IMG/VR virus record: IMGVR_UViG_2778261572_000006
Coordinates: 1-12,811 of that record
Strand: one strand, 5' to 3'
Length of the DNA: 12,811 nt
Source: a virus
Taxonomy: Duplodnaviria; Heunggongvirae; Uroviricota; Caudoviricetes
Under the pieces are notes generated by a model that made no database searches, was not told where the DNA came from, and was given only the letters and a program-made list of their open reading frames with translations. The position numbers and the translations under genes are program-made. Below are positions 193 through 12,788 of the stretch, in pieces. Within the stretch, counting starts at the first letter, position 1; each line of letters opens with the position of its first letter.

Positions 193-540
193 TCAACTCA
201 CAGGGATGGTTAACGAAAGTGGCTGGCCGGTGTCGTTGTGCTGGCCGGTTAACGTGACCGTCATTCGCCCGTCAAAACTGCGCGCCGTGGTGACAGATGA
301 CAGCGTGACGCGGGGTTCCCATTTCAGCACCGCCATGTAACAGGCGACCTTAATCTGCAACTCAAGCGCCGGGGTCTGCGGCTGGTCAATCATTGACGCC
401 AGCAACGAGCCGTAATCACGACGCATCACCCGTGAGCCGACCGGTGTGCGCAGGATATCGCCGATACTCTGGCTGATATGCTCAAGGTCAGTGACCGTCA
501 GGCCATCACTGCGATTCATTCCGAGATAACGCGCTGTCAT
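193..540 (-). CDS. W: Baseplate wedge protein W (P2 gpW, gp25-like)
   Basis: The 115-aa product (MTARYLGMNRSDGLTVTDLEHISQSIGDILRTPVGSRVMRRDYGSLLASMIDQPQ...) matches remembered P2 gpW in length and sequence. Its start overlaps the V stop (ATGA-type coupling) and synteny is V-W-J. Confidence 0.9.
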   Translation of the reverse strand: MTARYLGMNRSDGLTVTDLEHISQSIGDILRTPVGSRVMRRDYGSLLASMIDQPQTPALELQIKVACYMAVLKWEPRVTLSSVTTARSFDGRMTVTLTGQHNDTGQPLSLTIPVS

Positions 541-1172
541 AGAGGGCTCCCGGTTGTGCCGCCGCTGTCGCCGGGGTGTTTATGGGTATGCAGTACCTTA
601 CCGTTTGATGAGAGTTCACCGCCGGTGTGTTCAATGTTGCCGCGCATCGTCCCGCCCTTCTGCACTTCCAGCGTGCCGGTAATCAGCCTGTTGGTGCAAA
701 CCACCTCCGGTGTGTCCAGGGTGACGCGGGTTGATGCTTTCACCATGACCACCGGCACCGTGGCAGTAACAGAATCAGAAGCCGTCACGCTGGCCGTTTT
801 AATTCCGCTTGCCGTGAGTGCACTGGTTTCGGGTTCATACTCAATCACCGCCCCGTCAGGGAAACGGATATGCAGGGCATCCGCCGACGCAGACGGCGCG
901 GGGTTATCGCCGGAATAAATCCCCGGCAGAACGAACGCCGTGTCGAGTTCACCGCCCACAGCCAGAATCAGCACCTGTTCCCCCACGGAAGGTGCCCACC
1001 ATGTGCGCGAACGTCCGGCGCGATGGGTCAGCCACTGAAGCCAGTCGGTGCACATGCCACCGGTCTGCACACGGCAGCGACCGGCTTTAAGGTTGGTTTC
1101 GACGACAAGGCCGGTACGAATCATGTTGCGCAGTGCGCGCGCGAGTTCCTGAATATTTGCGAGAGTGTTCAT
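537..1172 (-). CDS. V: Baseplate spike/hub protein V (P2 gpV)
   Basis: The ORF 537..1190 contains MNTLANIQELARALRNMIRTGLVVET..., which matches the P2 gpV N-terminus from the 7th codon. I take the ATG at 1172 as the start (211 aa); the upstream ATG at 1190 is a less likely alternative. Confidence 0.85.
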   Translation of the reverse strand: MNTLANIQELARALRNMIRTGLVVETNLKAGRCRVQTGGMCTDWLQWLTHRAGRSRTWWAPSVGEQVLILAVGGELDTAFVLPGIYSGDNPAPSASADALHIRFPDGAVIEYEPETSALTASGIKTASVTASDSVTATVPVVMVKASTRVTLDTPEVVCTNRLITGTLEVQKGGTMRGNIEHTGGELSSNGKVLHTHKHPGDSGGTTGSPL

Positions 1173-1255
1173 GCGTGTGAGATTGCACAATATATAAAAG
1201 TTATGCTATCTGGATTCATTTGTAGAACGACCATACAACATTCGAGGAGAGCGTA
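1173..1255. promoter_or_regulatory. Divergent intergenic region between V (minus) and the AT-rich gene (plus); candidate Ogr-type late promoter for V with a partial TGT-N11-ACA dyad at 1221..1237
   Basis: An 83-bp AT-rich spacer lies between two divergent start codons. TGT at 1221..1223 and ACA at 1235..1237 resemble the P2 late-promoter TGT-N12-ACA element, but the spacing is off by one. A GAGGAG Shine-Dalgarno sits 6 nt before the ATG at 1256. Confidence 0.3.
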
Positions 1256-2041
1256 ATGTTCAGTGATAATGTGACTAATGCGTGGTGGTTTATCTCTTTG
1301 TATCTATTTTTATTAATAGCATTAACATTTATTACCTTTGGTAAAAGTAATCTTATGAGGTTTATTGCACATTATTTCAATTTTGAGTATTCAGACAGAA
1401 AGTTAAAAATGCTCGACAAAAAATGGCGCGACATTCAACTATTTAAAATAATTAACGGAATCAATGTATCAGGCATCGAAGATGTGAGAATGATACAGCA
1501 GGGGCTGATTGATGGAAAACTAAAAACATCGTATTTTTTTCTTACTCGCTTCTGGGGTGACATAACAAAACCACCACACATAATTAAAACAATAATTGTA
1601 ATTCTGTCCAGCATTATTTATATTCTCTTCGCATGTTATATACACAACAAACAATCCGCTATAGTAAGAGATGCCATAGGCATACCATATAAAAAGATGA
1701 TGTACTATGTTTATAGTGACAAAGTTCTTTTATCCTTCAACAATAAAACAGTTGAATTCAATAAAACTTATAGCCTTGCCGATTGCAAGAGGCTACGAAA
1801 CGTATTTATAAAAGACACACTTCCTGAGATCGCCTGCAATAAGCTCTTACAGCTAAACGAGGAGGACTCGGAATGGTTAAGTCAGGAGATTAAAGATAAT
1901 AACAGCCAAAAAAAAGCATTATTAATAATATCCCTCATCTATTTCATTTCAGGTCTGGTTATATTCCTGTCATATACAAAATTCCTTTACGCCAATAAGA
2001 AGGTTGTAGAATACAAAGCATCAAATAAAAATCACTCATAA
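1256..2041 (+). CDS. AT-rich predicted integral membrane protein (three hydrophobic segments), function unknown; moron at the position of P2 orf30 (between S and V)
   Basis: A 261-codon ORF with a GAGGAG RBS 6 nt upstream. Hydrophobic stretches WWFISLYLFLLIALTFITF, IIKTIIVILSSIIYILFACYI and ALLIISLIYFISGLVIFLSY. Codon usage is very AT-rich (many AAA/AAT/ATT/TTA), unlike the flanking P2 genes. It is followed by a hairpin terminator. Confidence 0.6.
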   Translation: MFSDNVTNAWWFISLYLFLLIALTFITFGKSNLMRFIAHYFNFEYSDRKLKMLDKKWRDIQLFKIINGINVSGIEDVRMIQQGLIDGKLKTSYFFLTRFWGDITKPPHIIKTIIVILSSIIYILFACYIHNKQSAIVRDAIGIPYKKMMYYVYSDKVLLSFNNKTVEFNKTYSLADCKRLRNVFIKDTLPEIACNKLLQLNEEDSEWLSQEIKDNNSQKKALLIISLIYFISGLVIFLSYTKFLYANKKVVEYKASNKNHS

Positions 2042-2206: not shown

Positions 2207-2683
2207 TTACCGTCTTTCCGGTTTTCTTCCGACAGACCGAACTGATGCACACTGGCGATTTTCGGTGACTTTCCGCCGTAAAACTCCATTGATGCCTGTT
2301 CCGGGCTGGCGCGGATAACGCGCCCACAGGTCCAGCGTTTTGTAGCGGATATAAAAATCGAAGTTAATCTGGTCGCATTCGTACTTGTTTGACGCCAGCT
2401 TCGAGAAGTCCTTCGGCTGACGCTCGGTGCCACCGGCGGTGTCGGTGGTGCTGGCGATGGAGCCGGTGACACCAATACCAATTTTTTCCCCTTTCATTTC
2501 GCTGACCGGCACAATGTTGATGCGGGTCAGAAAATCAGAGGACTCCTGCATGGTGTTCATCAGGGTCTGGGTGACCGACGGTTCAACGGTGAATTTTTTC
2601 GACACATCACCGGCGTCGATGCCGTTCAGTTCGGCAACACGGGACAGGTAGGCATTAAATTTAAAGCGGGTTTCCTGGCGCAT
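2207..2683 (-). pseudogene. N: Major capsid protein N (P2 gpN), 5' fragment: first ~123 codons intact, then out-of-frame or unrelated sequence and a stop
   Basis: Translation MRQETRFKFNAYLSRVAELNGIDAGDVSKKFTVEPSVTQTLMNTMQESSDFLTRINIVPVSEMKGEKIGIGVTGSIASTTDTAGGTERQPKDFSKLASNKYECDQINFDFYIRYKTLDLWARY matches remembered P2 gpN. gpN is about 357 aa, but only about 570 bp exist between the start (2683) and the terminator (about 2110), so the gene cannot be complete. The expected downstream genes M, L, X, lysis, R and S are absent. Confidence 0.75.
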
Positions 2684-2741: not shown

Positions 2742-3596
2742 TCAGCAGTTCGTCATCAGGGCGTCACCGCCACCGCCGGTGGCCTTGCTGCGGCGCTGCT
2801 GGGTCAGACTTTCGGTGTGGTCGAGGCTGTTTTTCAGGCGGGTGAATGCCTGGCTGGTTTCATCCGCCCTGTCAGTCACATCCTGCTTAAGTGCGGAAAA
2901 GGCGGTTTCCATCTCAGCGAGGCGCTGCTCAGTGGCGCTCAGTTTTTCCTGCACATGTTCAGCAACAGCGGTCACCGCTTCATGCACGTCATTCAGACGG
3001 GCGTCATCGCTGGCCTGTTTGCGGCCAAAAATGGATTTCACCTTTTCGGTCAGGGCGGTGAACACGGTTTCAGGCAGGTCTTCAAATTCCAGCTCAACAG
3101 GCGTTGCCACTGAAATCAGGTTTTCAGGGCTTAATTTGAAGCGGTTCAGGGGGTTGTGTTTTGCCGTGCGGCAGAATTCCAGGTATTCCGTGCCGAGGCT
3201 TGCCGGGTCATCGGTGACGGCCAGCCCCACCAGATAACATTTGCCGGTGTTGGCAAAGTTCGGCTGAATTTCCATTGAGGTGTAGACCTTCTGCGCGGCC
3301 TTGTTCATCGCGATAAGGTCATCGGTCGGGGTGATTTTCGCAAACAGCGCCCATTTGCCTTTCAGCGCCGAATCATCGTCAATCTTTTCGGCCTTCAGTT
3401 CGACCACATCGCCATAACGCTTAAAAATACCGTCAGGCAGGATGCCGCGCAGATGTTCCAGGTTAATGCGGCAACCATAGACTCGCGGGTCAAAGGTTTC
3501 GGCCATTTCCTGAATATCCTGCGCACTGATGACACGCCCGTCACAGGTGTCACCCTCAACGCCGATACGAAAGAATTTTGAGACTTTTTTTGCCAT
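2742..3596 (-). CDS. O: Capsid scaffolding protein O (P2 gpO)
   Basis: Product from MAKKVSKFFRIGVEGDTCDGRVISAQDIQEMAETFDPRVYG... to ...GGGGDALMTNC (284 aa) matches remembered P2 gpO. The ATG at 3596 is preceded by AGGAGTCCTGACA. The ORF-track start at 3662 is an upstream in-frame extension, not the real start. Confidence 0.9.
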   Translation of the reverse strand: MAKKVSKFFRIGVEGDTCDGRVISAQDIQEMAETFDPRVYGCRINLEHLRGILPDGIFKRYGDVVELKAEKIDDDSALKGKWALFAKITPTDDLIAMNKAAQKVYTSMEIQPNFANTGKCYLVGLAVTDDPASLGTEYLEFCRTAKHNPLNRFKLSPENLISVATPVELEFEDLPETVFTALTEKVKSIFGRKQASDDARLNDVHEAVTAVAEHVQEKLSATEQRLAEMETAFSALKQDVTDRADETSQAFTRLKNSLDHTESLTQQRRSKATGGGGDALMTNC

Positions 3597-3769
3597 TGTC
3601 AGGAGTCCTGAATAGTGATTAGAGGAGTCACATGTCGGCATCAGTTTCCCGACGATGCGCATCCTCCGCCATCAGTCCCGGATGGCTTATCACTGACACA
3701 ACAGCACCTTAGCGAATCGCGGGGCGCGACTCAGTAGCCTTGCCGTGTATTCATCACGGCGAGGTATTC
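3597..3769. promoter_or_regulatory. Divergent O/P intergenic region (expected site of P2 late promoters PO and PP); contains the dyad GTCGG-N10-CCGAC at 3634..3653
   Basis: A 173-bp spacer lies between divergent start codons of O (minus) and P (plus). A perfect 5-bp inverted repeat with a 10-nt spacer is seen directly. Assignment as Ogr-dependent late promoters is by synteny with P2 only. Confidence 0.35.
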
Positions 3770-5542
3770 ATGACCATCACCACAGACACCACTCTTTTAC
3801 ACGACCCGCGTCGTCAGGCGGCGCTGCTGTACTGGCAGGGATTTTCCGTGCCGCAGATTGCCACCATGTTGCAGATGAAACGCCCGACGGTGCAGAGCTG
3901 GAAACAGCGCGACGGCTGGGACAGCGTTGCCCCCATCAGCCGTGTCGAAATGAGTCTGGAAGCGCGGCTGACCCAGCTCATCATCAAACCGCAGAAAACC
4001 GGCGGTGACTTCAAGGAAATTGACCTGCTCGGACGCCAGATTGAACGACTGGCACGGGTCAACCGCTACAGCCAGACCGGCAACGAGGCAGACCTTAATC
4101 CGAACGTCGCTAACCGCAACAAAGGCGGGCGGCGCAAACCGAAAAAGAATTTTTTCAGTGACGAGGCCATCGAAAAGCTGGAGCAGATTTTCTTTGAGCA
4201 GTCTTTCGAATATCAGTTGCACTGGTATCGCGCCGGGCTTGAGCACCGCATCCGCGATATCCTGAAATCCCGCCAGATTGGCGCGACGTTTTATTTTTCC
4301 CGCGAGGCGCTGCTGCGCGCCCTGAAAACCGGTCATAACCAGATTTTTCTGTCGGCCAGTAAAACGCAGGCGTATGTGTTCCGCGAATACATCATCGCCT
4401 TTGCCCGGCTGGTTGACGTTGACCTGACCGGTGACCCAATTGTCCTGGGCAATAACGGCGCAAAACTGATTTTTCTCGGCACCAACTCCAACACCGCGCA
4501 GAGCCATAACGGCGACCTGTACGTCGACGAGATTTTCTGGATCCCGAATTTTCAGGTGCTCCGTAAGGTGGCATCAGGTATGGCCTCACAGAGTCACCTG
4601 CGCTCGACCTATTTCTCCACCCCGTCCACGCTGGCGCACGACGCCTACCCGTTCTGGTCCGGTGAACTGTTTAACCGGGGACGCGCCAGCGCCGCCGAAC
4701 GCGTGGAAATCGACGTCAGTCATAACGCCCTTGCCGGTGGGCTTCTCTGTGCGGACGGCCAGTGGCGGCAGATTGTCACCATTGAGGACGCCCTGAAAGG
4801 CGGCTGCACATTGTTCGACATTGAGCAGCTTAAACGCGAAAACAGCGCCGACGATTTTAAAAACCTGTTCATGTGTGAATTTGTTGACGACAAGGCGTCG
4901 GTGTTCCCGTTCGAGGAGCTGCAACGCTGCATGGTCGACACGCTGGAAGAATGGGAAGACTATGCGCCGTTTGCCGCGAATCCGTTCGGCTCCCGCCCGG
5001 TATGGATTGGTTACGACCCGTCACACCGTGGCGACAGCGCCGGATGCGTGGTGCTGGCACCGCCGGTGGTGGCCGGTGGCAAATTCAGAATACTTGAGCG
5101 TCACCAGTGGAAAGGCATGGACTTTGCCACTCAGGCGGAATCCATCCGCAAACTCACCGAAAAATACAACGTCGAATACATCGGTATTGATGCCACCGGC
5201 CTCGGTGTCGGCGTGTTCCAGCTCGTGCGCTCGTTCTATCCCGCCGCGCGCGATATCCGCTACACACCGGAAATGAAAACCGCAATGGTGCTCAAGGCAA
5301 AAGACGTTATCCGCCGTGGCTGTCTGGAATATGACGTCAGCGCCACCGACATCACCAGCTCGTTTATGGCTATCCGCAAGACCATGACCAGCAGCGGACG
5401 CAGCGCCACCTATGAGGCCAGCCGCAGCGAGGAAGCCAGCCACGCCGACCTCGCCTGGGCGACCATGCACGCCCTGTTAAATGAGCCACTCACCGCCGGT
5501 ATCAGCACCCCACTGACATCCACCATTCTGGAGTTTTACTGA
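3770..5542 (+). CDS. P: Terminase large (ATPase) subunit P (P2 gpP)
   Basis: Product MTITTDTTLLHDPRRQAALLYWQGFSVPQIATMLQMKRPT... (590 aa) matches remembered P2 gpP. A GAGG RBS precedes the ATG at 3770, and the stop overlaps the Q start by 1 nt. The ORF-track start at 3740 is an upstream extension. Confidence 0.9.
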   Translation: MTITTDTTLLHDPRRQAALLYWQGFSVPQIATMLQMKRPTVQSWKQRDGWDSVAPISRVEMSLEARLTQLIIKPQKTGGDFKEIDLLGRQIERLARVNRYSQTGNEADLNPNVANRNKGGRRKPKKNFFSDEAIEKLEQIFFEQSFEYQLHWYRAGLEHRIRDILKSRQIGATFYFSREALLRALKTGHNQIFLSASKTQAYVFREYIIAFARLVDVDLTGDPIVLGNNGAKLIFLGTNSNTAQSHNGDLYVDEIFWIPNFQVLRKVASGMASQSHLRSTYFSTPSTLAHDAYPFWSGELFNRGRASAAERVEIDVSHNALAGGLLCADGQWRQIVTIEDALKGGCTLFDIEQLKRENSADDFKNLFMCEFVDDKASVFPFEELQRCMVDTLEEWEDYAPFAANPFGSRPVWIGYDPSHRGDSAGCVVLAPPVVAGGKFRILERHQWKGMDFATQAESIRKLTEKYNVEYIGIDATGLGVGVFQLVRSFYPAARDIRYTPEMKTAMVLKAKDVIRRGCLEYDVSATDITSSFMAIRKTMTSSGRSATYEASRSEEASHADLAWATMHALLNEPLTAGISTPLTSTILEFY

Positions 5543-6576
5543 TGAGCAAGAAAAAAGGGAAAACACCGCAACCTGCGGCAAAAACAATGACCGCCAGCGC
5601 CCCGAAAATGGAGGCATTCACCTTTGGTGAGCCGGTGCCGGTACTCGACCGCCGTGACATTCTGGATTACGTCGAGTGCATCAGTAACGGCAGATGGTAT
5701 GAGCCGCCGGTCAGCTTTACCGGTCTGGCGAAAAGCCTGCGTGCTGCCGTGCATCACAGCTCGCCGATTTACGTCAAACGCAATATTCTGGCCTCGACAT
5801 TTATCCCGCATCCGTGGCTTTCCCAGCAGGATTTCAGCCGCTTTGTGCTGGATTTTCTGGTGTTCGGTAATGCGTTTCTGGAAAAGCGTTACAGCACCAC
5901 CGGTAAGGTCATCAGACTGGAAACCTCACCGGCAAAATATACCCGCCGTGGCGTGGAGGAGGATGTTTACTGGTGGGTGCCGTCCTTCAACGAGCCGACA
6001 GCCTTCGCGCCCGGCTCCGTGTTTCACCTGCTGGAGCCGGATATCAATCAGGAGCTGTACGGCCTGCCGGAATATCTCAGCGCCCTTAACTCTGCCTGGC
6101 TGAATGAGTCGGCCACGCTGTTCCGCCGCAAGTATTACGAAAACGGCGCACATGCCGGATACATCATGTACGTCACCGATGCCGTGCAGGATCGCAACGA
6201 TATCGAAATGCTTCGCGAAAACATGGTGAAATCGAAAGGCCGCAACAACTTTAAAAACCTGTTTCTCTATGCCCCGCAGGGAAAAGCCGACGGCATTAAA
6301 ATTATCCCGCTCAGTGAAGTGGCGACGAAGGACGATTTTTTTAATATCAAAAAAGCCAGTGCCGCAGACCTGCTGGACGCGCACCGCATCCCCTTTCAGT
6401 TGATGGGCGGCAAACCGGAGAACGTCGGGTCGCTGGGCGATATTGAGAAAGTAGCAAAGGTCTTTGTCCGCAATGAGCTTATCCCGTTACAGGACAGGAT
6501 CCGCGAGATAAACGGCTGGCTCGGTCAGGAGGTCATCCGATTTAAAAACTACTCACTGGACACTGACAACGGCTGA
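5542..6576 (+). CDS. Q: Portal protein Q (P2 gpQ)
   Basis: The 344-aa product MSKKKGKTPQPAAKTMTASAPKMEAFTFGEPVPVLDRRDILDYVECISNGRWYEPP... matches remembered P2 gpQ. It is translationally coupled to P and followed by a terminator and the cos site, as in P2. Confidence 0.9.
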   Translation: MSKKKGKTPQPAAKTMTASAPKMEAFTFGEPVPVLDRRDILDYVECISNGRWYEPPVSFTGLAKSLRAAVHHSSPIYVKRNILASTFIPHPWLSQQDFSRFVLDFLVFGNAFLEKRYSTTGKVIRLETSPAKYTRRGVEEDVYWWVPSFNEPTAFAPGSVFHLLEPDINQELYGLPEYLSALNSAWLNESATLFRRKYYENGAHAGYIMYVTDAVQDRNDIEMLRENMVKSKGRNNFKNLFLYAPQGKADGIKIIPLSEVATKDDFFNIKKASAADLLDAHRIPFQLMGGKPENVGSLGDIEKVAKVFVRNELIPLQDRIREINGWLGQEVIRFKNYSLDTDNG

Positions 6577-6580
6577 ACAT

Positions 6581-6604
6581 CGCCGCCTGCGGGCGGCTTT
6601 TTTA
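6581..6604 (+). terminator. Intrinsic terminator downstream of Q
   Basis: GC-rich hairpin GCCGCC-TGCG-GGCGGC (6582..6597) followed immediately by TTTTTT, 5 nt after the Q stop codon. Confidence 0.65.
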
Positions 6605-6746
6605 CACCCCGTCATCACGCCCTCACACGTTCGCCACTGTACAAAACACCCCGCAGACACACCAACGCCCCGGCAGGCCGACTAAACGCCATCACGACGC
6701 GCTCAGACGCTGAAAAAATAAAATCAGCACCACCGCCAGCGCGCAG

Positions 6747-6765
6747 TGCTTTCCCCGCCTCGCCC
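6747..6765. other. P2-type cos site (19-nt cohesive-end sequence, present here as its reverse complement)
   Basis: The plus strand reads GTGCTTTCCCCGCCTCGCC, the exact reverse complement of the P2 cohesive end GGCGAGGCGGGGAAAGCAC as I remember it. It lies about 170 bp downstream of Q, where cos is expected. Confidence 0.7.
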
Positions 6766-6991
6766 GCCCGCTTCATGGGTCGGTTTTGATGCAATTCCAA
6801 AAGCCGTCCTAACTCTCTTAGGCTAAATGTCCAACGAGAAAATAGTTCTTTGAATGTGAATGCATTTTAATGCAGAGTTATGCCCAGCATTTTTGTACAC
6901 TTCGATGTATCAAATGCGCTGCAAACGATCAAATATGGATGTTTTATCAAGCATCCCCCAAAAGATATTTACATCATCCCATGAGGTTAAG

Positions 6992-8065
6992 ATGGATAAC
7001 AAAATCGTAGAAATTGAGACAAATAAGCTTGATTTTGACCCTAAAAACCCACGTTTCTTTCGTCTCAATGATGCCAGTAACGCTGCAACAGTCATTGAGG
7101 AAATGTTAGATGACGAAAGTGTCCACGATCTAATGCTATCAATCGGTCAGCAAGGTTACTTTCCTGGAGAACCTTTATTGGCAGTAAAAAGCAATGGAAA
7201 CTACATCGTGGTTGAGGGAAACAGACGCTTAGCTGCTGTAAAGTTGCTCAATGGAGATCTGCTTCCTCCAAAAAGAAAACTTAAAGGTGTGCAAGAAATC
7301 ATTGATGATACTACCAATAAACCTAAGAAGCTTCCCTGCATCATTTATGAAAACCGAGAGGATGTACTGAGATATATCGGTTATCGTCATATAACTGGGG
7401 TCAAAGAATGGGACTCATTATCTAAAGCCAAATACCTTAAAGAGTTATGTGATACTTTTTATTCACATGAGCCTAAAGAGATAGTATTAAAAAATCTGGC
7501 TCGTGAGATTGGGAGTAAACCACATTATGTTGCAACACTTCTCACTGCACTGAACTTATATGAAGTCGCGCATGACCATGAGTTTTTTAATTTACCCATG
7601 AAGGCTTCTGACGTGGAATTTTCATATATAACCACAGCTTTGGGATATTCAAAAATCACAAACTGGTTAGGTCTACAGGATAAAAAGGATTTTTTAGACC
7701 CAAATTTAAATGAAGAAAACCTTAAGCGTTTATTCTCTTGGTTTTTTGTGCCTGACCAACAAGGTAGAACCATCATCGGTGAGTCTCGAAGAATAAAAGA
7801 TATTGCAGCAGTGGTTGAGAAACCCGAAGCAATTGAAATTCTCATGAAAAGTTCAAACTTGGATGAAGCATATCTATATACCAGCGGAGAAAGAGAAGCA
7901 TTAGATAAAGCACTAAACGCAGCTAGTGTTAAATTAAGAGTAGTTTGGGATATGCTACTTAAAGCTAAAGAATTAACATTAGAGCATGAAGAGGCTGCAT
8001 CTGAAATTTTTGAGATGTCAAAAAATATTAGAAATCAGATCAGAAGCAAAAGGGAGGATGATTGA
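6992..8065 (+). CDS. ParB/Srx N-terminal-domain protein (ParB-like NTPase/nuclease-type domain), 357 aa; candidate defence-module component
   Basis: ATG at 6992 is preceded by GAGGT 6 nt upstream. Motifs KLDFDPKNPRF and YIVVEGNRRLAAVKLL fit the ParB N-terminal-domain pattern (xPNPxQPR ... GERRxRAA-type arginine box). Codon usage is AT-rich. The ORF-track start at 6860 adds 44 non-conserved-looking codons and is treated as leader. Confidence 0.6.
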   Translation: MDNKIVEIETNKLDFDPKNPRFFRLNDASNAATVIEEMLDDESVHDLMLSIGQQGYFPGEPLLAVKSNGNYIVVEGNRRLAAVKLLNGDLLPPKRKLKGVQEIIDDTTNKPKKLPCIIYENREDVLRYIGYRHITGVKEWDSLSKAKYLKELCDTFYSHEPKEIVLKNLAREIGSKPHYVATLLTALNLYEVAHDHEFFNLPMKASDVEFSYITTALGYSKITNWLGLQDKKDFLDPNLNEENLKRLFSWFFVPDQQGRTIIGESRRIKDIAAVVEKPEAIEILMKSSNLDEAYLYTSGEREALDKALNAASVKLRVVWDMLLKAKELTLEHEEAASEIFEMSKNIRNQIRSKREDD

Positions 8066-8069
8066 GATT

Positions 8070-9095
8070 ATGATTACAAATCTTGATTCAATGCCTTCTA
8101 ATGAGCCTTATTTATGGGCTGATTATATTGAGATATTGGCCTTAACTAATATCGACAGGTCATTCAGTCGAGGAGACCTATATAGCACACTGCAAGCTCA
8201 ACCCGAAGCAGTACTAGCTGAAACAGATGAAGCAGAAGAAGAGGGCGTTTATGATGTTGATGATGAAAATGATGCGCCTGTACGCAAGAGAACAAAACGA
8301 AGTGTTAGTCGAGCATATACTGACAGAAAGTGGAGCTATGCGATAGGCTTCATACGACAACGCATTGATTTATTTGGGGATAGTTACCCTTTTACTTTAT
8401 CAGAAGACAACGATACTGTAGAGTTACGTGATATATCAGAAAAGCCACTGGAACATTTAGAAAGACTATATTTAGCTTTACTAATCTGTGCTAACATAAA
8501 ATATGTCAACATAATGAGCAGAAGAGAGATAACGCGCAGTTTTGAACTAATTAGTTTACCTATTTTTGAAAGCCTAATGCCTAGCGGTAGCATAATAAAA
8601 GCATGCTGGGCTTCTGGTGGTCAAGCGGCCCCTTACACTGGAACTCTATATAATAAATTTAAGAGTATTGCTTCCGATATCCGTTGCACAGCGAACTTCA
8701 AAGAACGAGATTTCAGTCGAGGAAATAGTGGTGACGGAGGCCTTGACATAATTGCCTGGCATCCAATGGGAGATCAACGAGATGCCATCCCTATTTCTTT
8801 TGTTCAGTGTGGCTGTTCTCAAGAAGAGTGGGAAGCGAAGCAGCTTGAGGCCTCACCTGCGATGCTCTACAGTAAATTCCCCGTAGCTCACCGATGGGCA
8901 ACTTATTATTTCTTACCTCAAGATCTACGATGGATAGATGGTGAGTGGGCGCATAAAAATAAGTTAGGCGATGCTATTTTTGTTGATCGCCTAAGATTAA
9001 TCAATTTAACCAGAGCATCTGATAATATTGATCACAGTCAAAATATTAGCTATCTAGATATCATCCTTGATCCTTCCAGCGCGATCGCTGCTTAA
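8070..9095 (+). CDS. Hypothetical protein with a C-terminal Mrr-like PD-(D/E)xK nuclease-type motif, 341 aa; candidate defence effector
   Basis: ATG at 8070 lies 12 nt after GGAGG (8053..8057), which is inside the last codons of the upstream gene; an alternative ATG is at 8058. The motif GDGGLDIIAW ... ISFVQCGC ... EEWEAK resembles the Mrr catalytic core GDGG[IV]D ... QxK, from memory. An acidic stretch (ETDEAEEEGVYDVDDENDAP) is followed by a basic patch (VRKRTKRSVSR). AT-rich. Confidence 0.55.
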   Translation: MITNLDSMPSNEPYLWADYIEILALTNIDRSFSRGDLYSTLQAQPEAVLAETDEAEEEGVYDVDDENDAPVRKRTKRSVSRAYTDRKWSYAIGFIRQRIDLFGDSYPFTLSEDNDTVELRDISEKPLEHLERLYLALLICANIKYVNIMSRREITRSFELISLPIFESLMPSGSIIKACWASGGQAAPYTGTLYNKFKSIASDIRCTANFKERDFSRGNSGDGGLDIIAWHPMGDQRDAIPISFVQCGCSQEEWEAKQLEASPAMLYSKFPVAHRWATYYFLPQDLRWIDGEWAHKNKLGDAIFVDRLRLINLTRASDNIDHSQNISYLDIILDPSSAIAA

Positions 9096-10030
9096 TCCCA
9101 TAAATCTGGAAGGTTTCTAGCAACCGCCTCAAACAATGGAGGCGGTACTGCATTACCTACCACAGTATATTTCATATTAATAGAAGCCCGTTCAGTTTCT
9201 GGGAAAATTAAATCCCCAAAACCTTGTAAAATAGCAGCCTCTCGATAGCTAAACCTACGAGCTGGTGCATCCGAAGTAAATTGCCACTTATCAGGTCCCA
9301 ATTTTTCTAATGTTGGACTTATTGGATGTAGAGGCATATGTCTAGGATTTGCAACAATTGTTTTAGATATCTGATCCCAATCTTGCCTACGGTTTCGCGA
9401 TAGATAATACCAATGAAAATCGGCGTCATAAAACTCGCCAACAGGCCAAACAGGCATATGCCCAATAGCATCACGAATTGTGGAATATGGTGTCAAACCA
9501 TCACCATGTGTTGGTTTTGGAAATTTGTATGTAATACCGTAGTCCTTTCGTATTCCTACGATAAAGATTCGCTTCCTATCTTGGGATACCCCATAATGGG
9601 ACGCATTCAGAATTTGCGAGCTTACTGTATAACCTGCTTCTTCGAAAACTTTGAATTGATCCTTTAATAAATGCTCAAAGTTACGCCTTACCATACCAGA
9701 GACATTCTCTACAATGAATGCTTTTGGCTTAATTTTACTCAAAGCACGGGCAAACTCTAAATATAGTGTATTAATCTTTCTATCTGCCTTCCTTGCCCCA
9801 CCTTGACTAAATCCTTGGCAAGGATAGCATCCGATGAGCAACTCAGCAGAAGGGAACGACTGGAGCCCTGAGATATCGCCCAAAATGTAGTCAGTTTCAG
9901 GATGGTTTTCTAAGTAAACGTCCCTTGCGTAAGGCAAAATATCATTTGCCATAAGCACATTGAAACCTGCGTTCAAAACTCCCGCATCAGAACCACCACA
10001 TCCAGAAAAAAGTGAAACTACAGTTGGCAT
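9092..10030 (-). CDS. DNA (cytosine-5)-methyltransferase, 312 aa
   Basis: Canonical C5-MTase motifs in order: SLFSGCGG (motif I, FxGxG), GCYPCQGFS (motif IV, PCQ catalytic Cys), ENV (motif VI), QDRKRIFIVG (motif VIII), then a ~100-aa variable region and RRFSYREAAILQGF ... VGNAVPPPLFEAV (motifs IX/X). An AGGAGG RBS lies 6 nt before the ATG at 10030. Its stop codon overlaps the stop of the convergent gene ending at 9095. Confidence 0.85.
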   Translation of the reverse strand: MPTVVSLFSGCGGSDAGVLNAGFNVLMANDILPYARDVYLENHPETDYILGDISGLQSFPSAELLIGCYPCQGFSQGGARKADRKINTLYLEFARALSKIKPKAFIVENVSGMVRRNFEHLLKDQFKVFEEAGYTVSSQILNASHYGVSQDRKRIFIVGIRKDYGITYKFPKPTHGDGLTPYSTIRDAIGHMPVWPVGEFYDADFHWYYLSRNRRQDWDQISKTIVANPRHMPLHPISPTLEKLGPDKWQFTSDAPARRFSYREAAILQGFGDLIFPETERASINMKYTVVGNAVPPPLFEAVARNLPDLWD

Positions 10031-10272
10031 TGACCCCTCCTAAAAACCGACCGCGTATTATAGCGAAACACCCCGTTGGGAAAAGCTAGATTTTGCCAAG
10101 TCTTGATATTCTCACGTTTTAGTAGTTGTGGCCATCTTTAACGAGAAAAAGATAAAATTGACTTCTCATTAATTTTCAATAGGTTTAATTGTAAGCTCAA
10201 ACTAACGCCTCGCGACACTCGTTATTCAACCCCGCCAGCCCTGAAAACAAGTTTCACGACTGGCGGCGTTCT

Positions 10273-10491
10273 CTATCGTCTGCGTTGTGGTGGCGCAACT
10301 CTGGACTGACCGATATGGTTAAACCGCCCGTAATTATCCCGGACTATTTCGGCACACCCGACCAGCTCATCGGGCGTCAGATTTTCGTTGACCATAATCC
10401 GCTGTAAACGCTGAACAATAGCCATCAGCTTGATATTTTTAGTTTTATGGTGCGGTATCTCGCCTGGTATTCTGTGCATTATCCAAGCCAC
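10273..10491 (-). CDS. Small hypothetical ORF (50-72 codons depending on start), uncertain
   Basis: An ORF in the interval between the DUF3850-like gene and the methyltransferase. There is no convincing RBS for any of the three in-frame ATGs (10491, 10479, 10425), and it overlaps the 3' end of the upstream gene. Kept only as a possibility. Confidence 0.25.
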   Translation of the reverse strand: MAWIMHRIPGEIPHHKTKNIKLMAIVQRLQRIMVNENLTPDELVGCAEIVRDNYGRFNHIGQSRVAPPQRRR

Positions 10492-10921
10492 CCGTTTTGC
10501 TGTGCACGCTCCATCTGTTCATCTGAATAGTTCCATGCTCCATCCGTGGCAACCATTGCCCCGCCAGACATCCCCGTCTCTGGTTCATACATAACAGCAA
10601 GGCCGAGCTGATGCATAATTTCATGATTAATTCTGAATACCAAGCCACGCTCACTAAGTTCTTTCCAGTTCACAATCTCATATGCGCCTGTATTAAGCAG
10701 CTCAATACTTAGCAAGACATAATCTTCCAGCCAGTCTGACAGGTCAGTAACATCTGTTATCCGGGCTTCAACATTTCGCCCCGTATACACACCCTGCACC
10801 CATTCATACAAAATCAACGTGTCCCCGCGCTCATAATTACGGTCATTTTTCCGGAACTCTGCACGTTTCTTTCCTTCCAGCACAAGGTCGAAATATTTTG
10901 CGTGCAGCTTTACCTCGTGAA
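10479..10921 (-). CDS. DUF3850/ASCH-like (PUA-fold) domain protein, about 147 aa
   Basis: ATG at 10921 is preceded by GGAGTGGA. The N-terminal MAKIHEVKLHAKYFDLVLEGKKRAEFRKNDRNYERGDTLILYE fits the ASCH/DUF3850 pattern (GxKxxExR ... GDxLxL). It lies immediately downstream of gene A on the same strand. The ORF-track start at 10967 overlaps the A stop and is less likely. Confidence 0.55.
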
Positions 10922-10930
10922 TTTTTGCCA

Positions 10931-12673
10931 TTATGTCCACTCCATTACTGTTGAGAATCCCGGCCACTCATCAGCGACCGGATACGTGAATTTTTTCCCG
11001 TCATAATTTACGGTCGCGCCACGCGCCAGCGCCTCAAGCTCCCATCGCTGCGGCCTGATACCGTTCTGAGCAAGGTCAACGCGGATACGGGTAATTTGCG
11101 TTCGTTCCGACCGGGTCAGTCTGGCCGATGGCGCTATTTCATGTGGTTTTAACGGGCTTCCGTTTCTCTGCTGACGATTTGGTGTTCTCAGTTCGTGTTT
11201 TAATGCACCTCTGAGCGCCCTCACGACCTCCGGGTCATTCCATTCGATAACACCGTCATCAACCAGATTAAGCACTGCTGCGGCGTGCTCAGAAGGCGTG
11301 GGAGCCGGTAACGAAGTATCACCACCGGTGAGCTTTCCACAGTTATTGACAGGACTCCGAGGCGCGGCGATGCCGCTTTTTAAAGTCAAAGGCTCAACGA
11401 CCGGAACTTTCGGCACAATGCGCCAGTCCGTCGTTCTGGTGATATGAATATGACGCGCGCCGAGATGCGGCGCGTAAATGCCGACCACTCTCTCGACTTC
11501 TTCCTCGTACTCGTTAACGTCATCCGACGGGCTACGGGCGACCCTGACAGTCTGACAATCGCGCGGGACATTTGCCCCGCCCTGCGCGCTGATATACAAC
11601 GCAAAATCACCACTGTCTGCGGCGGCGCGTGCAGCCTCGACGCGTTCGTCAAACTCATCAGCAATGCTGACGCCGCGAGGCAATTTGCGTAGCTCACGGT
11701 AAGCCCCCATTGTCGGCAGGCCAACCGTTTTAAATTGCGGAATGCGCCACGTTGACGCCCATGCGGTAACAGCCGCGGCAGTATCTTTAAGCGGCTTACC
11801 GGTATCGTTATCGAGCTGACCATCCAGTGCATAGCCGTCGATGTTTTTTGAGATGTATTTCGCGATATATCCCGCAGCACCGCCCCGGTTAAGGTGTTTT
11901 GCCTGAAAACGGTTTCGCGCGGCTCCTCTTTCGTCTCCATCCTCTTTGAGCGCGTAGCGACGCATGATTTCAATAATCTGGTTACGCTGGCGTGGATTAC
12001 AAAAAAGCATCATATGCCAGTGCGGCGTTCCGTCGTGGTGTGGCTCGACGACACGCAAACCGTAGACCTGTAAATCATTATCCTTGAATGCCGTGCGCAT
12101 CAGGCTCCAGATACGGCAGAGATAACGCTGCGCATCCTTTGGATTAAATGCCTCATCGTTCCAGCCGTGATTAAGCTGCACGGTTTTACTTTCGCCTTTT
12201 CCGACCTGACGTGTCGGGTGATACTTTGACGGCGCGGTCAGCGTGATAAACATCCCCACATCACCCTCTGCAGCGGCGTAACGCTCAATACCGGCAATGG
12301 TGTTCATCAGCTCCATCCGGCGAATTTCAGGATTAGAAATACTGCCCATCACCTTACTGATAAGGTCGATGCGCTCGCCGGTTTCCCTGTTTTCAAGGTC
12401 ACACGATTTAAGAAATTCCAGATTTGCCTGGCGGCGCGCACGCACATCACGAATGGCATGTTTACTGGCATAAGGAGAACGGTCTTTATTGACCTCCCCG
12501 ACAGCTATCAGTAACGCTTCATGCCAGCGCATACGCTGGCCTTTAAGCTGATGAGTCCACCACTCATCGTTAAACAGGCGGGCAATGGCAGAATATGCCT
12601 GCCTCGTGGTCATCTGCCCTTTACGGTATTTTTTCCAGTAAAGCGGGGAAATATTGAAAGCACATGCAGCGCC
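10931..12673 (-). pseudogene. A: Replication initiation protein A (P2 gpA, rolling-circle HUH endonuclease), 5'-truncated by an IS10 insertion; about 580 C-terminal codons remain
   Basis: The product contains the HUH-type motif PHWHMMLF and the active-site tyrosine region GYIAKYISKN and ends ...FSTVMEWT, as in remembered P2 gpA. Reading upstream of the first ATG (12613), the frame continues as ...AFNISPLYWKKYRKGQ, which is still gpA-like, up to 12673. There it abuts the IS10 terminus, and an in-frame stop follows 4 codons into the IS. Confidence 0.85.
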
Positions 12674-12719
12674 CTGATGAATCCCCTAATGATTTTGGTA
12701 AAAATCATTAAGTTAAGGT

Positions 12720-12788
12720 GGATACACATCTTGTCATATGATCAAATGGTTTCGCGAAAAATCAATAATCAGACAACAAGATGTGCGA
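12720..12788 (-). ncRNA. IS10 RNA-OUT antisense RNA (pOUT transcript), position inferred
   Basis: Placed purely from remembered IS10 coordinates (RNA-OUT spans about element positions 47-115 and is complementary to the transposase start region). Not independently derivable from this sequence. Confidence 0.35.

Follow-up and report, generated by a model that had tools for sequence, protein, structure and literature searches.

The window analyzed here, a stretch of 12,811 nucleotides (IMG/VR record IMGVR_UViG_2778261572_000006), represents a defective P2-like (Peduovirus) prophage of Escherichia coli and encodes a C5-cytosine DNA methyltransferase that is not an orphan but the conserved third member of a three-gene module of wide distribution. 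The methylase is 100% identical to Mth of coliphage Wphi, and it meets, tail to tail at overlapping stop codons, a convergent operon encoding homologs of Wphi gp98 and gp96; the three genes are 99.8-100% identical to their Wphi counterparts. At moderate confidence, the methylase is regarded as the modification subunit of a three-gene defense module resembling restriction-modification (R-M) systems and lodged in a hotspot of P2-like prophages. The methylase by itself is ordinary, whereas the module is uncharacterized, of known kind; no experimental work on the gp98-gp96-methylase triad was found in the literature searched.

In the lysogen, the methylase would be expressed from its own conserved promoter-like region and would methylate host and prophage DNA at a short motif, for which a GGCC-like sequence is predicted. 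The convergent operon would supply gp98, likely a nucleoside triphosphate (NTP)-binding switch, loader or nuclease, together with gp96, its nuclease-fold partner, and the two would jointly attack incoming DNA without the methyl mark. The tail-to-tail stop overlap would keep the genes co-inherited, and transcription of the methylase may dampen expression of the nuclease. We infer enzymatic activity, a methylation that protects and does not activate, a gp98-gp96 complex and an anti-phage function.

The methyltransferase and its predicted target

The original prediction, made from the sequence alone, had recognized a complete C5-cytosine methyltransferase, and this was borne out by a full-length match to PF00145 (E=9.9e-62, 209.7 bits against a cut-off of 22; residues 3-307, profile positions 2-322 of 324) and by a match to the NCBIfam dcm model TIGR00675 (E=1.8e-54, 185.6 bits against a cut-off of 100.65). 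The motifs that it had named, FxGxG, PCQ, ENV and QxRxR, are all found in the translation as motif I (F8-S-G-C-G-G13), motif IV (P70-C71-Q72), motif VI (E108-N-V110) and motif VIII (Q150-D-R-K-R154), as are motif IX (R258-R-F-S-Y-R-E...G270-F) and motif X (G292-N-A-V-P). All catalytic motifs are kept in an alignment of 40 distinct methylase relatives. Between the window methylase and that of O145:H28 strains and phage 12474III, 7 of 312 residues differ, with a synonymous divergence (dS) of 0.33 and a ratio of nonsynonymous to synonymous divergence (dN/dS) of 0.04, indicating strong purifying selection; the divergence between the two methylases is about equal to that of the phage backbone. The methylase is real and intact and very probably functional.

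A variable region of about 100 residues had also been noted between motifs VIII and IX; it comprises 103 residues and aligns with the recognition domain of M.HaeIII, with which the methylase aligns end to end (E=1.6e-48). Identity to M.HaeIII within this region is only 28%. Among the 40 family members, the core of the region, FHWYYLSRNRRQDW...TIVANPRHMPLHP, is almost invariant. Six residues of M.HaeIII have been reported to contact target bases (PMC3526282; PMC11879396). Four of these (S224, R225, R227, and R243) are identical in the window methylase and invariant in the family, while S219 and Q244 both correspond to histidine. Retention of four of the six contacts suggests a GGCC-like target, which is a reasonable prediction and not a result. 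GGCC avoidance was uninformative: the cassette has 6 sites where 5.1 are expected, and the backbone has 31 where 44 are expected.

Linkage and distribution of the triad

A search of 5,426 complete E. coli genomes found the methylase in 140, with an identity of >=99% in 104 of them and of 90-95% in 36; each of the 140 had a single copy, always chromosomal and never carried by a plasmid. The type-1 gp98-gp96 pair, that of the window, is present in 104 E. coli genomes and a type-2 pair in 36, O145:H28 strains included, and at this sensitivity no solitary methylase copy was detected among the 5,426 (140 = 104 + 36). The whole 3.9-kb cassette region is held by 104 complete E. coli genomes, and carriers of the cassette include E. 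coli W, which is naturally lysogenic for Wphi. Solitary methylases were likewise absent from the Klebsiella, other Enterobacteriaceae, Yersinia, and Pseudomonas phages sampled.

The gp96 family numbers 1,474 representatives of 50%-identity clusters (profile search of public data, E<=0.001), and a search for it over one genome per bacterial species yielded 41 loci. The triad is kept at 37 of these, mostly in tail-to-tail arrangement. A gp98 homolog lies immediately upstream of gp96 at 38 of the 41, and a convergent methylase of 60-84% identity follows within 0-300 nucleotides downstream of gp96 at 34. In Variovorax, Hydrogenophaga, and Pelomonas (L027-L029, ~5912-10300), the convergent slot is filled by a 1048-residue N6_Mtase-domain protein, after which comes a 395-residue C5 methylase, 41% identical to that of the window and ~3.2 kb from gp96. 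A distant gp96 clade known from metagenomes (27-33% identity; L066-L080) retains gp98-like, gp96-like, and C5 methylase genes at 13 of the 14 informative loci, that is, those with enough flanking sequence. There the methylase, 26-47% identical to the window's, is mostly co-directional with and downstream of the gp96 homolog, indicating that the convergent layout is typical of one large clade and not universal.

The range of the triad extends over Gamma- and Betaproteobacteria, several phage genera, and non-phage islands. It occurs in P2/186-like prophages of Klebsiella and other Enterobacteriaceae, in Yersinia phage HQ103, in Pseudomonas phage vB_PaeM-D14A (where it occupies another site in the genome), and in the non-phage chromosomal contexts of Methylomonas and Oryzomicrobium. 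Just past the methylase of Methylomonas sp. DH-1 (L004, 8590-8766) lie a short Vsr gene fragment and a transposase; Vsr, a T:G mismatch endonuclease, usually accompanies C5 methylases as a repair enzyme.

Abutment of gp96 and the methylase, tail to tail, is a family trait. The overlap of the two stop codons that had been reported in the window is read as TTAA on both strands, and equivalent four-nucleotide overlaps (TTAA, CTAA, TTAG, or CTAG) are seen at 22 of 47 loci; a longer overlap occurs at 2 of the 47 and a gap of 0-32 nucleotides at 18.

Of the two readings first offered for this gene, conserved synteny supports that of a modification partner in a three-gene restriction-like system. The other, an orphan phage methyltransferase, is now highly improbable; under it, the enzyme would protect phage DNA from host restriction or alter host gene expression, and its neighbors would be unrelated cargo. 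It agrees with a 2026 survey in which the dcm-like genes of P2-like phages are treated as immune-evasion auxiliary genes (PMC13100340), and the methylase does have its own conserved upstream region and a history incongruent with that of its neighbors. Against it stand the lack of any solitary copy in the 5,426 complete E. coli genomes, the recurrence of the triad outside phages and at other positions in other phage genera, the conserved abutment, and an association that outlasts replacement of the methylase by distant C5 methylases.

Decay and exchange of the partner genes

Several loci have decayed naturally. At one, gp98 is lost and gp96 N-terminally truncated beside an intact methylase (L044); at another, gp96 has an internal deletion and gp98 is truncated, again with the methylase intact and here overlapping gp96 by 79 nucleotides (L048). 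In E. coli 98206 (L064, NZ_CP173544.1, 2875-4200), insertion sequence ISKpn26 of the IS5 family interrupts the 5' end of gp96, leaving gp98 and the methylase intact. At two loci from which the methylase is absent, gp96 is broken at its catalytic motif (L049) or truncated (L072), and phage L-413C has a truncated gp98 and has lost gp96 and the methylase by deletion; L041, described below, is the one exception. This asymmetry, in small numbers, fits what an R-M pair predicts.

The triad could also be a selfish R-M 'toxin-antitoxin' module that stabilizes a prophage or island through post-segregational killing, owes its spread to this effect alone and has no real anti-phage role. The carriage of the genes by mobile elements, their tight linkage, the convergent overlap that would prevent separate loss, and the persistence of the cassette in a heavily degraded prophage (the capsid gene of the window is truncated and gpA apparently cut by IS10) are all in keeping with addiction. 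We nevertheless think such an explanation quite unlikely to be the right one: the hotspot occupied by the cassette houses experimentally validated defense systems (PMC9519451; PMC9122126), and the rapid divergence of gp98 and gp96, set beside a methylase that stays conserved, is reminiscent of an arms race with phage. For R-M systems, moreover, addiction and defense are not mutually exclusive.

gp98 and gp96 co-vary, as expected of interacting partners, and fall into at least two deep clades, between which gp96 is 24-27% and gp98 29-35% identical. Among enterobacterial phages, methylase identity is 74-98% regardless of the partner clade, and the histories of methylase and partner pair are incongruent, from which it follows that module exchange has occurred. 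Sequence comparison points to wholesale replacement of the partner pair, one of the junctions lying where the convergent stops meet. The original prediction had suggested separate acquisition of the methylase from its lower AT content. The difference holds with respect to gp98 (guanine-plus-cytosine [GC] content of 0.409 in the methylase and 0.370 in gp98) and not with respect to gp96 (0.405), and third-position GC is near-equal across the three genes (0.304, 0.304, and 0.307); composition thus lends no support to separate acquisition, while the phylogenetic evidence favors exchange of modules.

The partner proteins gp98 and gp96

The first ~150 residues of gp98 are homologous to the ParB-type N-terminal domain of the PD-lambda-5 A protein (PADLOC, 3e-24). 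Neither a motif nor a structural match for HEPN was found in gp98.

Translation of gp96 is taken to start at the methionine encoded at position 8070, because its homologs (304-346 residues) begin there; a GGAGG lies 12 nucleotides upstream, directly against which stands the alternative ATG at 8058. Searches of Pfam, NCBIfam, PADLOC, and PDB sequences gave no match for gp96. An AlphaFold2 model built from 31 sequences has a mean predicted local distance difference test score (pLDDT) of 87, and in it the N-terminal region is helical or winged-helix and not an SRA-like modified-base-binding domain. Residues D222, G224, D226, Q246, C247, K257, and E260 are invariant across deep divergence. The gene had been described as Mrr-like. 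This does not hold at the level of sequence, since Pfam Mrr_cat matched 1 of 31 family members (E=0.13); it holds to the extent that a restriction-endonuclease fold is predicted and that structural comparison returns MspJI. The fold match without an Mrr_cat match supports the description 'restriction-fold nuclease-like', and membership of the Mrr family is not established. On its predicted structure, gp96 is a candidate restriction subunit.

At about residues 45-85 of gp96 (~8200-8325), there is an acidic insertion, EAVLAETDEAEEEGVYDVDDENDAPVRKRTKRS, modeled with a confidence of 52-69; it is restricted to the closest enterobacterial relatives, and most of the family lacks it.

The methylase upstream region

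Upstream of the methylase lies a region conserved in five cassettes, those of Klebsiella included, with a Shine-Dalgarno sequence and a perfect -10 hexamer. These features suggest an independent methylase promoter that would permit expression in the lysogen. An invariant TGGCCACA block stands ~100 nucleotides before the methylase start, and the GGCC within it, the predicted target, could serve methylation-dependent autoregulation of the methylase, for which the evidence is weak, as ~0.3 such sites are expected by chance per 150 nucleotides. A hairpin that is kept in three cassettes follows directly on the stop codon of orf92, separating the early operon from the methylase, and presumably acts as a terminator.

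Relationship to known defense systems

HaeIII-type Type II R-M systems share with the cassette a monomeric C5 methylase of ~310 residues with the ten canonical motifs, a tail-to-tail arrangement of the methylase gene with a gene for a restriction-fold, nuclease-like protein, and a mobile, AT-rich character; the adjacency and co-inheritance of methylase and nuclease-like gene are as in Type II R-M. The cassette differs in adding an obligatory-looking ParB/Srx-fold gene, and in that the gp96 family has neither a Pfam model nor the canonical (D/E)xK lysine.

PD-lambda-5 is an experimentally confirmed two-gene defense system ('ParB/HEPN, methyltransferase') that was interpreted by its authors as a compact combination of R-M and abortive infection, and it required a host lacking the mrr region (PMC9519451). 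Like the cassette, it is prophage-borne and couples a ParB-type N-terminal domain to a DNA methyltransferase; it differs in that protein A has a C-terminal region called HEPN, missing from gp98, and in having no gp96 homolog. In Marinobacter phage AS1, PD-lambda-5 consists of a 486-residue A protein and a B protein that is a D12-class N6-adenine methylase (PF02086; PD-Lambda-5_B, 4e-103), and the window methylase gave no PD-Lambda-5_B match in PADLOC. Membership in PD-lambda-5 was rejected, the ParB N-terminal domain alone being shared, the methylase class being different, and gp96 having no counterpart. A PD-lambda-5-like locus was observed in Vibrio phage ValB1MD-2 (L060, 3132-5571), where A is split into a 252-residue ParB part and a 265-residue C-terminal part, and a Dam-like adenine methylase comes next. 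In PADLOC, the window methylase is matched best by DruM of Druantia type II (1e-110; 2e-39 for the recognition region). Druantia II was also rejected: DruE, DruF, and DruG are lacking, no open reading frame of the window exceeds 600 residues, and the other genes are phage backbone.

Operons combining a ParB nuclease, a DNA methylase, and HEPN (MAE_28990/RiboL-PSP) were described by Anantharaman et al. (2013; PMC3710099), and the P2 loci of Rousset et al. (2022) include 'DUF262 + DNA_methylase + HEPN' and 'DNA_methylase + hypothetical + ParBc'. The term 'ParB' is absent from the supplementary file of tested systems of the latter study. The ParB/methylase/HEPN operons and the DUF262 locus resemble the cassette in uniting a ParB-superfamily protein with a methylase and an effector, and the P2 hotspot is shared; the effector of the operons is a HEPN RNase, in contrast to the restriction-fold, DNase-like gp96, and the ParB domain of gp98 is ParB_N-like and not DUF262. 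GmrSD, BrxU, and SspE likewise join a ParB/Srx-superfamily domain to a DNA nuclease in connection with DNA modification. However, they are single polypeptides with an HNH (DUF1524) nuclease that target or sense modified DNA and are not known to adjoin a cognate C5 methylase in this way, whereas the cassette has two proteins, a PD-(D/E)xK fold, and a neighboring C5 methylase.

MspJI was called a remote Mrr homolog by its discoverers, and its gene has a C5 methylase gene and vsr as neighbors (PMC2938202); its D334A and Q355A mutants are dead (PMC2938202). It has in common with gp96 a related nuclease structure, a C5 methylase neighbor, and a D...Q catalytic signature. The two differ in that MspJI has an N-terminal SRA-like domain binding 5-methylcytosine (5mC), carries a QxK motif, of which the lysine two residues past the glutamine is absent from gp96, cleaves DNA that is methylated, and lacks a ParB-like partner. 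With no significant Mrr_cat match and no SRA-like N-terminal domain, gp96 was not placed among the Mrr/MspJI-type Type IV enzymes. The location of MspJI provides a published precedent, not a decisive one, for the paradox raised in the original prediction, namely an Mrr-type nuclease next to a methylase.

Restriction or methylation sensing

Several observations weigh against a restriction-modification role. The role of the ParB-like protein is without precedent in classical Type II systems. The gp96 motif, D226...Q246-C-G248, is devoid of the canonical (D/E)xK lysine, and K257 is on the next helix. The two significant matches of the gp96 model in Foldseek were both to MspJI, a methylcytosine-dependent enzyme (E=1.2e-4; template modeling score of 0.28, local). 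That two divergent partner clades serve near-identical methylases is unusual if gp96 reads exactly the same sequence. In a metagenome bin of Methylococcaceae (L041), intact gp98 and gp96 with their catalytic residues kept have no methylase within 5 kb, and a classical restriction enzyme should not survive in this way unless the methylase is elsewhere. Lastly, a consensus promoter scan gave nothing above shuffled expectation and no strong promoter or terminator; the putative upstream promoter went uncalled because its -35 element is weak.

Alternatively, the gp98-gp96 pair might read the 5mC deposited by the methylase as a signal, being held inactive on self DNA or activated by it, much as SspE responds to phosphorothioate or as MspJI-type enzymes bind 5mC; loss of the methylase would then silence or misdirect the system and not be lethal. 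This is unlikely in our estimation, although MspJI is the sole significant structural match of gp96 and itself neighbors a C5 methylase and vsr. A C5 partner is found at almost every locus examined, down to 26-47% identity and probably with different specificity, and is kept at L027-L029 next to the N6_Mtase protein that fills the adjacent slot. The pairing of very different partner clades with near-identical methylases and the intact pair of L041 fit as well, and a ParB-like domain plus a nuclease is the layout of the modification-sensing GmrSD and SspE (see also PMC12839542). On the other side, the gp96 N-terminal region is unlike the SRA-like beta domain of MspJI, Mrr_cat is unmatched, loss of the nuclease side with retention of the methylase fits classical R-M better, and a nuclease dependent on 5mC, if encoded next to its own methylase, would attack the cell itself unless the specificities of the two were disjoint. 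It is a similarly doubtful proposition that the triad constitutes a distinct class of methylation-coupled immunity, in which an NTP-dependent ParB/Srx protein and an MspJI-related nuclease read the 5mC pattern of the cell, and not a fixed sequence, so as to distinguish self from incoming DNA; such reading would explain the C5 partner at almost every locus examined, the swapping of pairs, and the intact pair without a methylase.

The prophage and its cargo slot

The same prophage is found whole in E. coli SMS-3-5, adjoining cpxP. In the window, the region 1256-2683 retains a capsid gene N reduced to 158 residues, and M, L, X, the lysis genes, R, and S are gone; the space from gpV to what is left of N contains a very AT-rich open reading frame at 1256-2041 (+) encoding 261 residues (GC 0.32; phrog_2407, of unknown function). 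At the right edge, gpA has 560 residues against 761 in intact relatives and appears to be cut short by an IS10/Tn10 end, the IS10 antisense RNA being matched at 12719-12788 (-) by the Rfam model RNA-OUT (98.8 bits, E=4e-20). The three cassette genes form an AT-rich cargo (GC 0.37-0.41) between Q and orf92, set in a backbone in which gpP, gpQ, and gpA have a GC content of 0.54-0.57. This slot is the old/tin hotspot of P2-like phages, a site of anti-phage systems (PMC9519451; PMC9122126). The features of the window are collected in Table 1.

Table 1. Genes and sequence features of the window
Feature	Position	Strand	Remarks
gpW	193-540	-	
gpV	537-1190	-	
Capsid gene N	2207-2683	-	Truncated
Scaffold gene O	2742-3662	-	
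Terminase P	3740-5542	+	600 residues; largest open reading frame of the window
Portal Q	5542-6576	+	
gp98-like gene	6992-8065	+	357 residues; N-terminal ParB/Srx fold and all-helical C-terminal region (predicted); longest open reading frame from 6860
gp96-like gene	8070-9095	+	341 residues; N-terminal winged helix and C-terminal PD-(D/E)xK nuclease fold (predicted)
Overlapping convergent stops (TTAA)	9092-9095		gp96 TAA at 9093-9095 (+); methylase TAA at 9092-9094 (-)
C5-cytosine DNA methyltransferase (Wphi mth)	9092-10030	-	312 residues; WP_001143634; ATG start
Target-recognition region	9260-9568	-	Residues 155-257; 103 residues between motifs VIII and IX
Codon of catalytic Cys71 (PCQ)	9818-9820	-	From translation; invariant in family alignment
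Conserved methylase upstream region	10031-10227	-	Alignment of five cassettes
Shine-Dalgarno AGGAGG	10036-10041	-	
-10 TATAAT	10057-10062	-	Found only through alignment
TGGCCACA block	10127-10134		GGCC at 10130-10133
Hairpin	10228-10270	-	19-nucleotide arms, 5-nucleotide loop
orf92	10273-10491	-	
orf91	10479-10967	-	DUF3850/ASCH gene
Replication gene A (gpA)	10931-12613	-	

Significance

The methylases of P2-like prophages are now read as immune-evasion or 'auxiliary' genes; that of the window is instead locked to a ParB-fold protein and a nuclease-fold protein, the latter of a family for which Pfam, NCBIfam, and PADLOC have no model. The cassette also shows, in nature, effector pairs being exchanged while the methylase stays fixed. 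Should it restrict the DNA of phages or plasmids, it would represent an unrecognized barrier to gene flow and to phage therapy in the lineages that carry it, and the R-M repertoire would gain a third component, of the ParB type.

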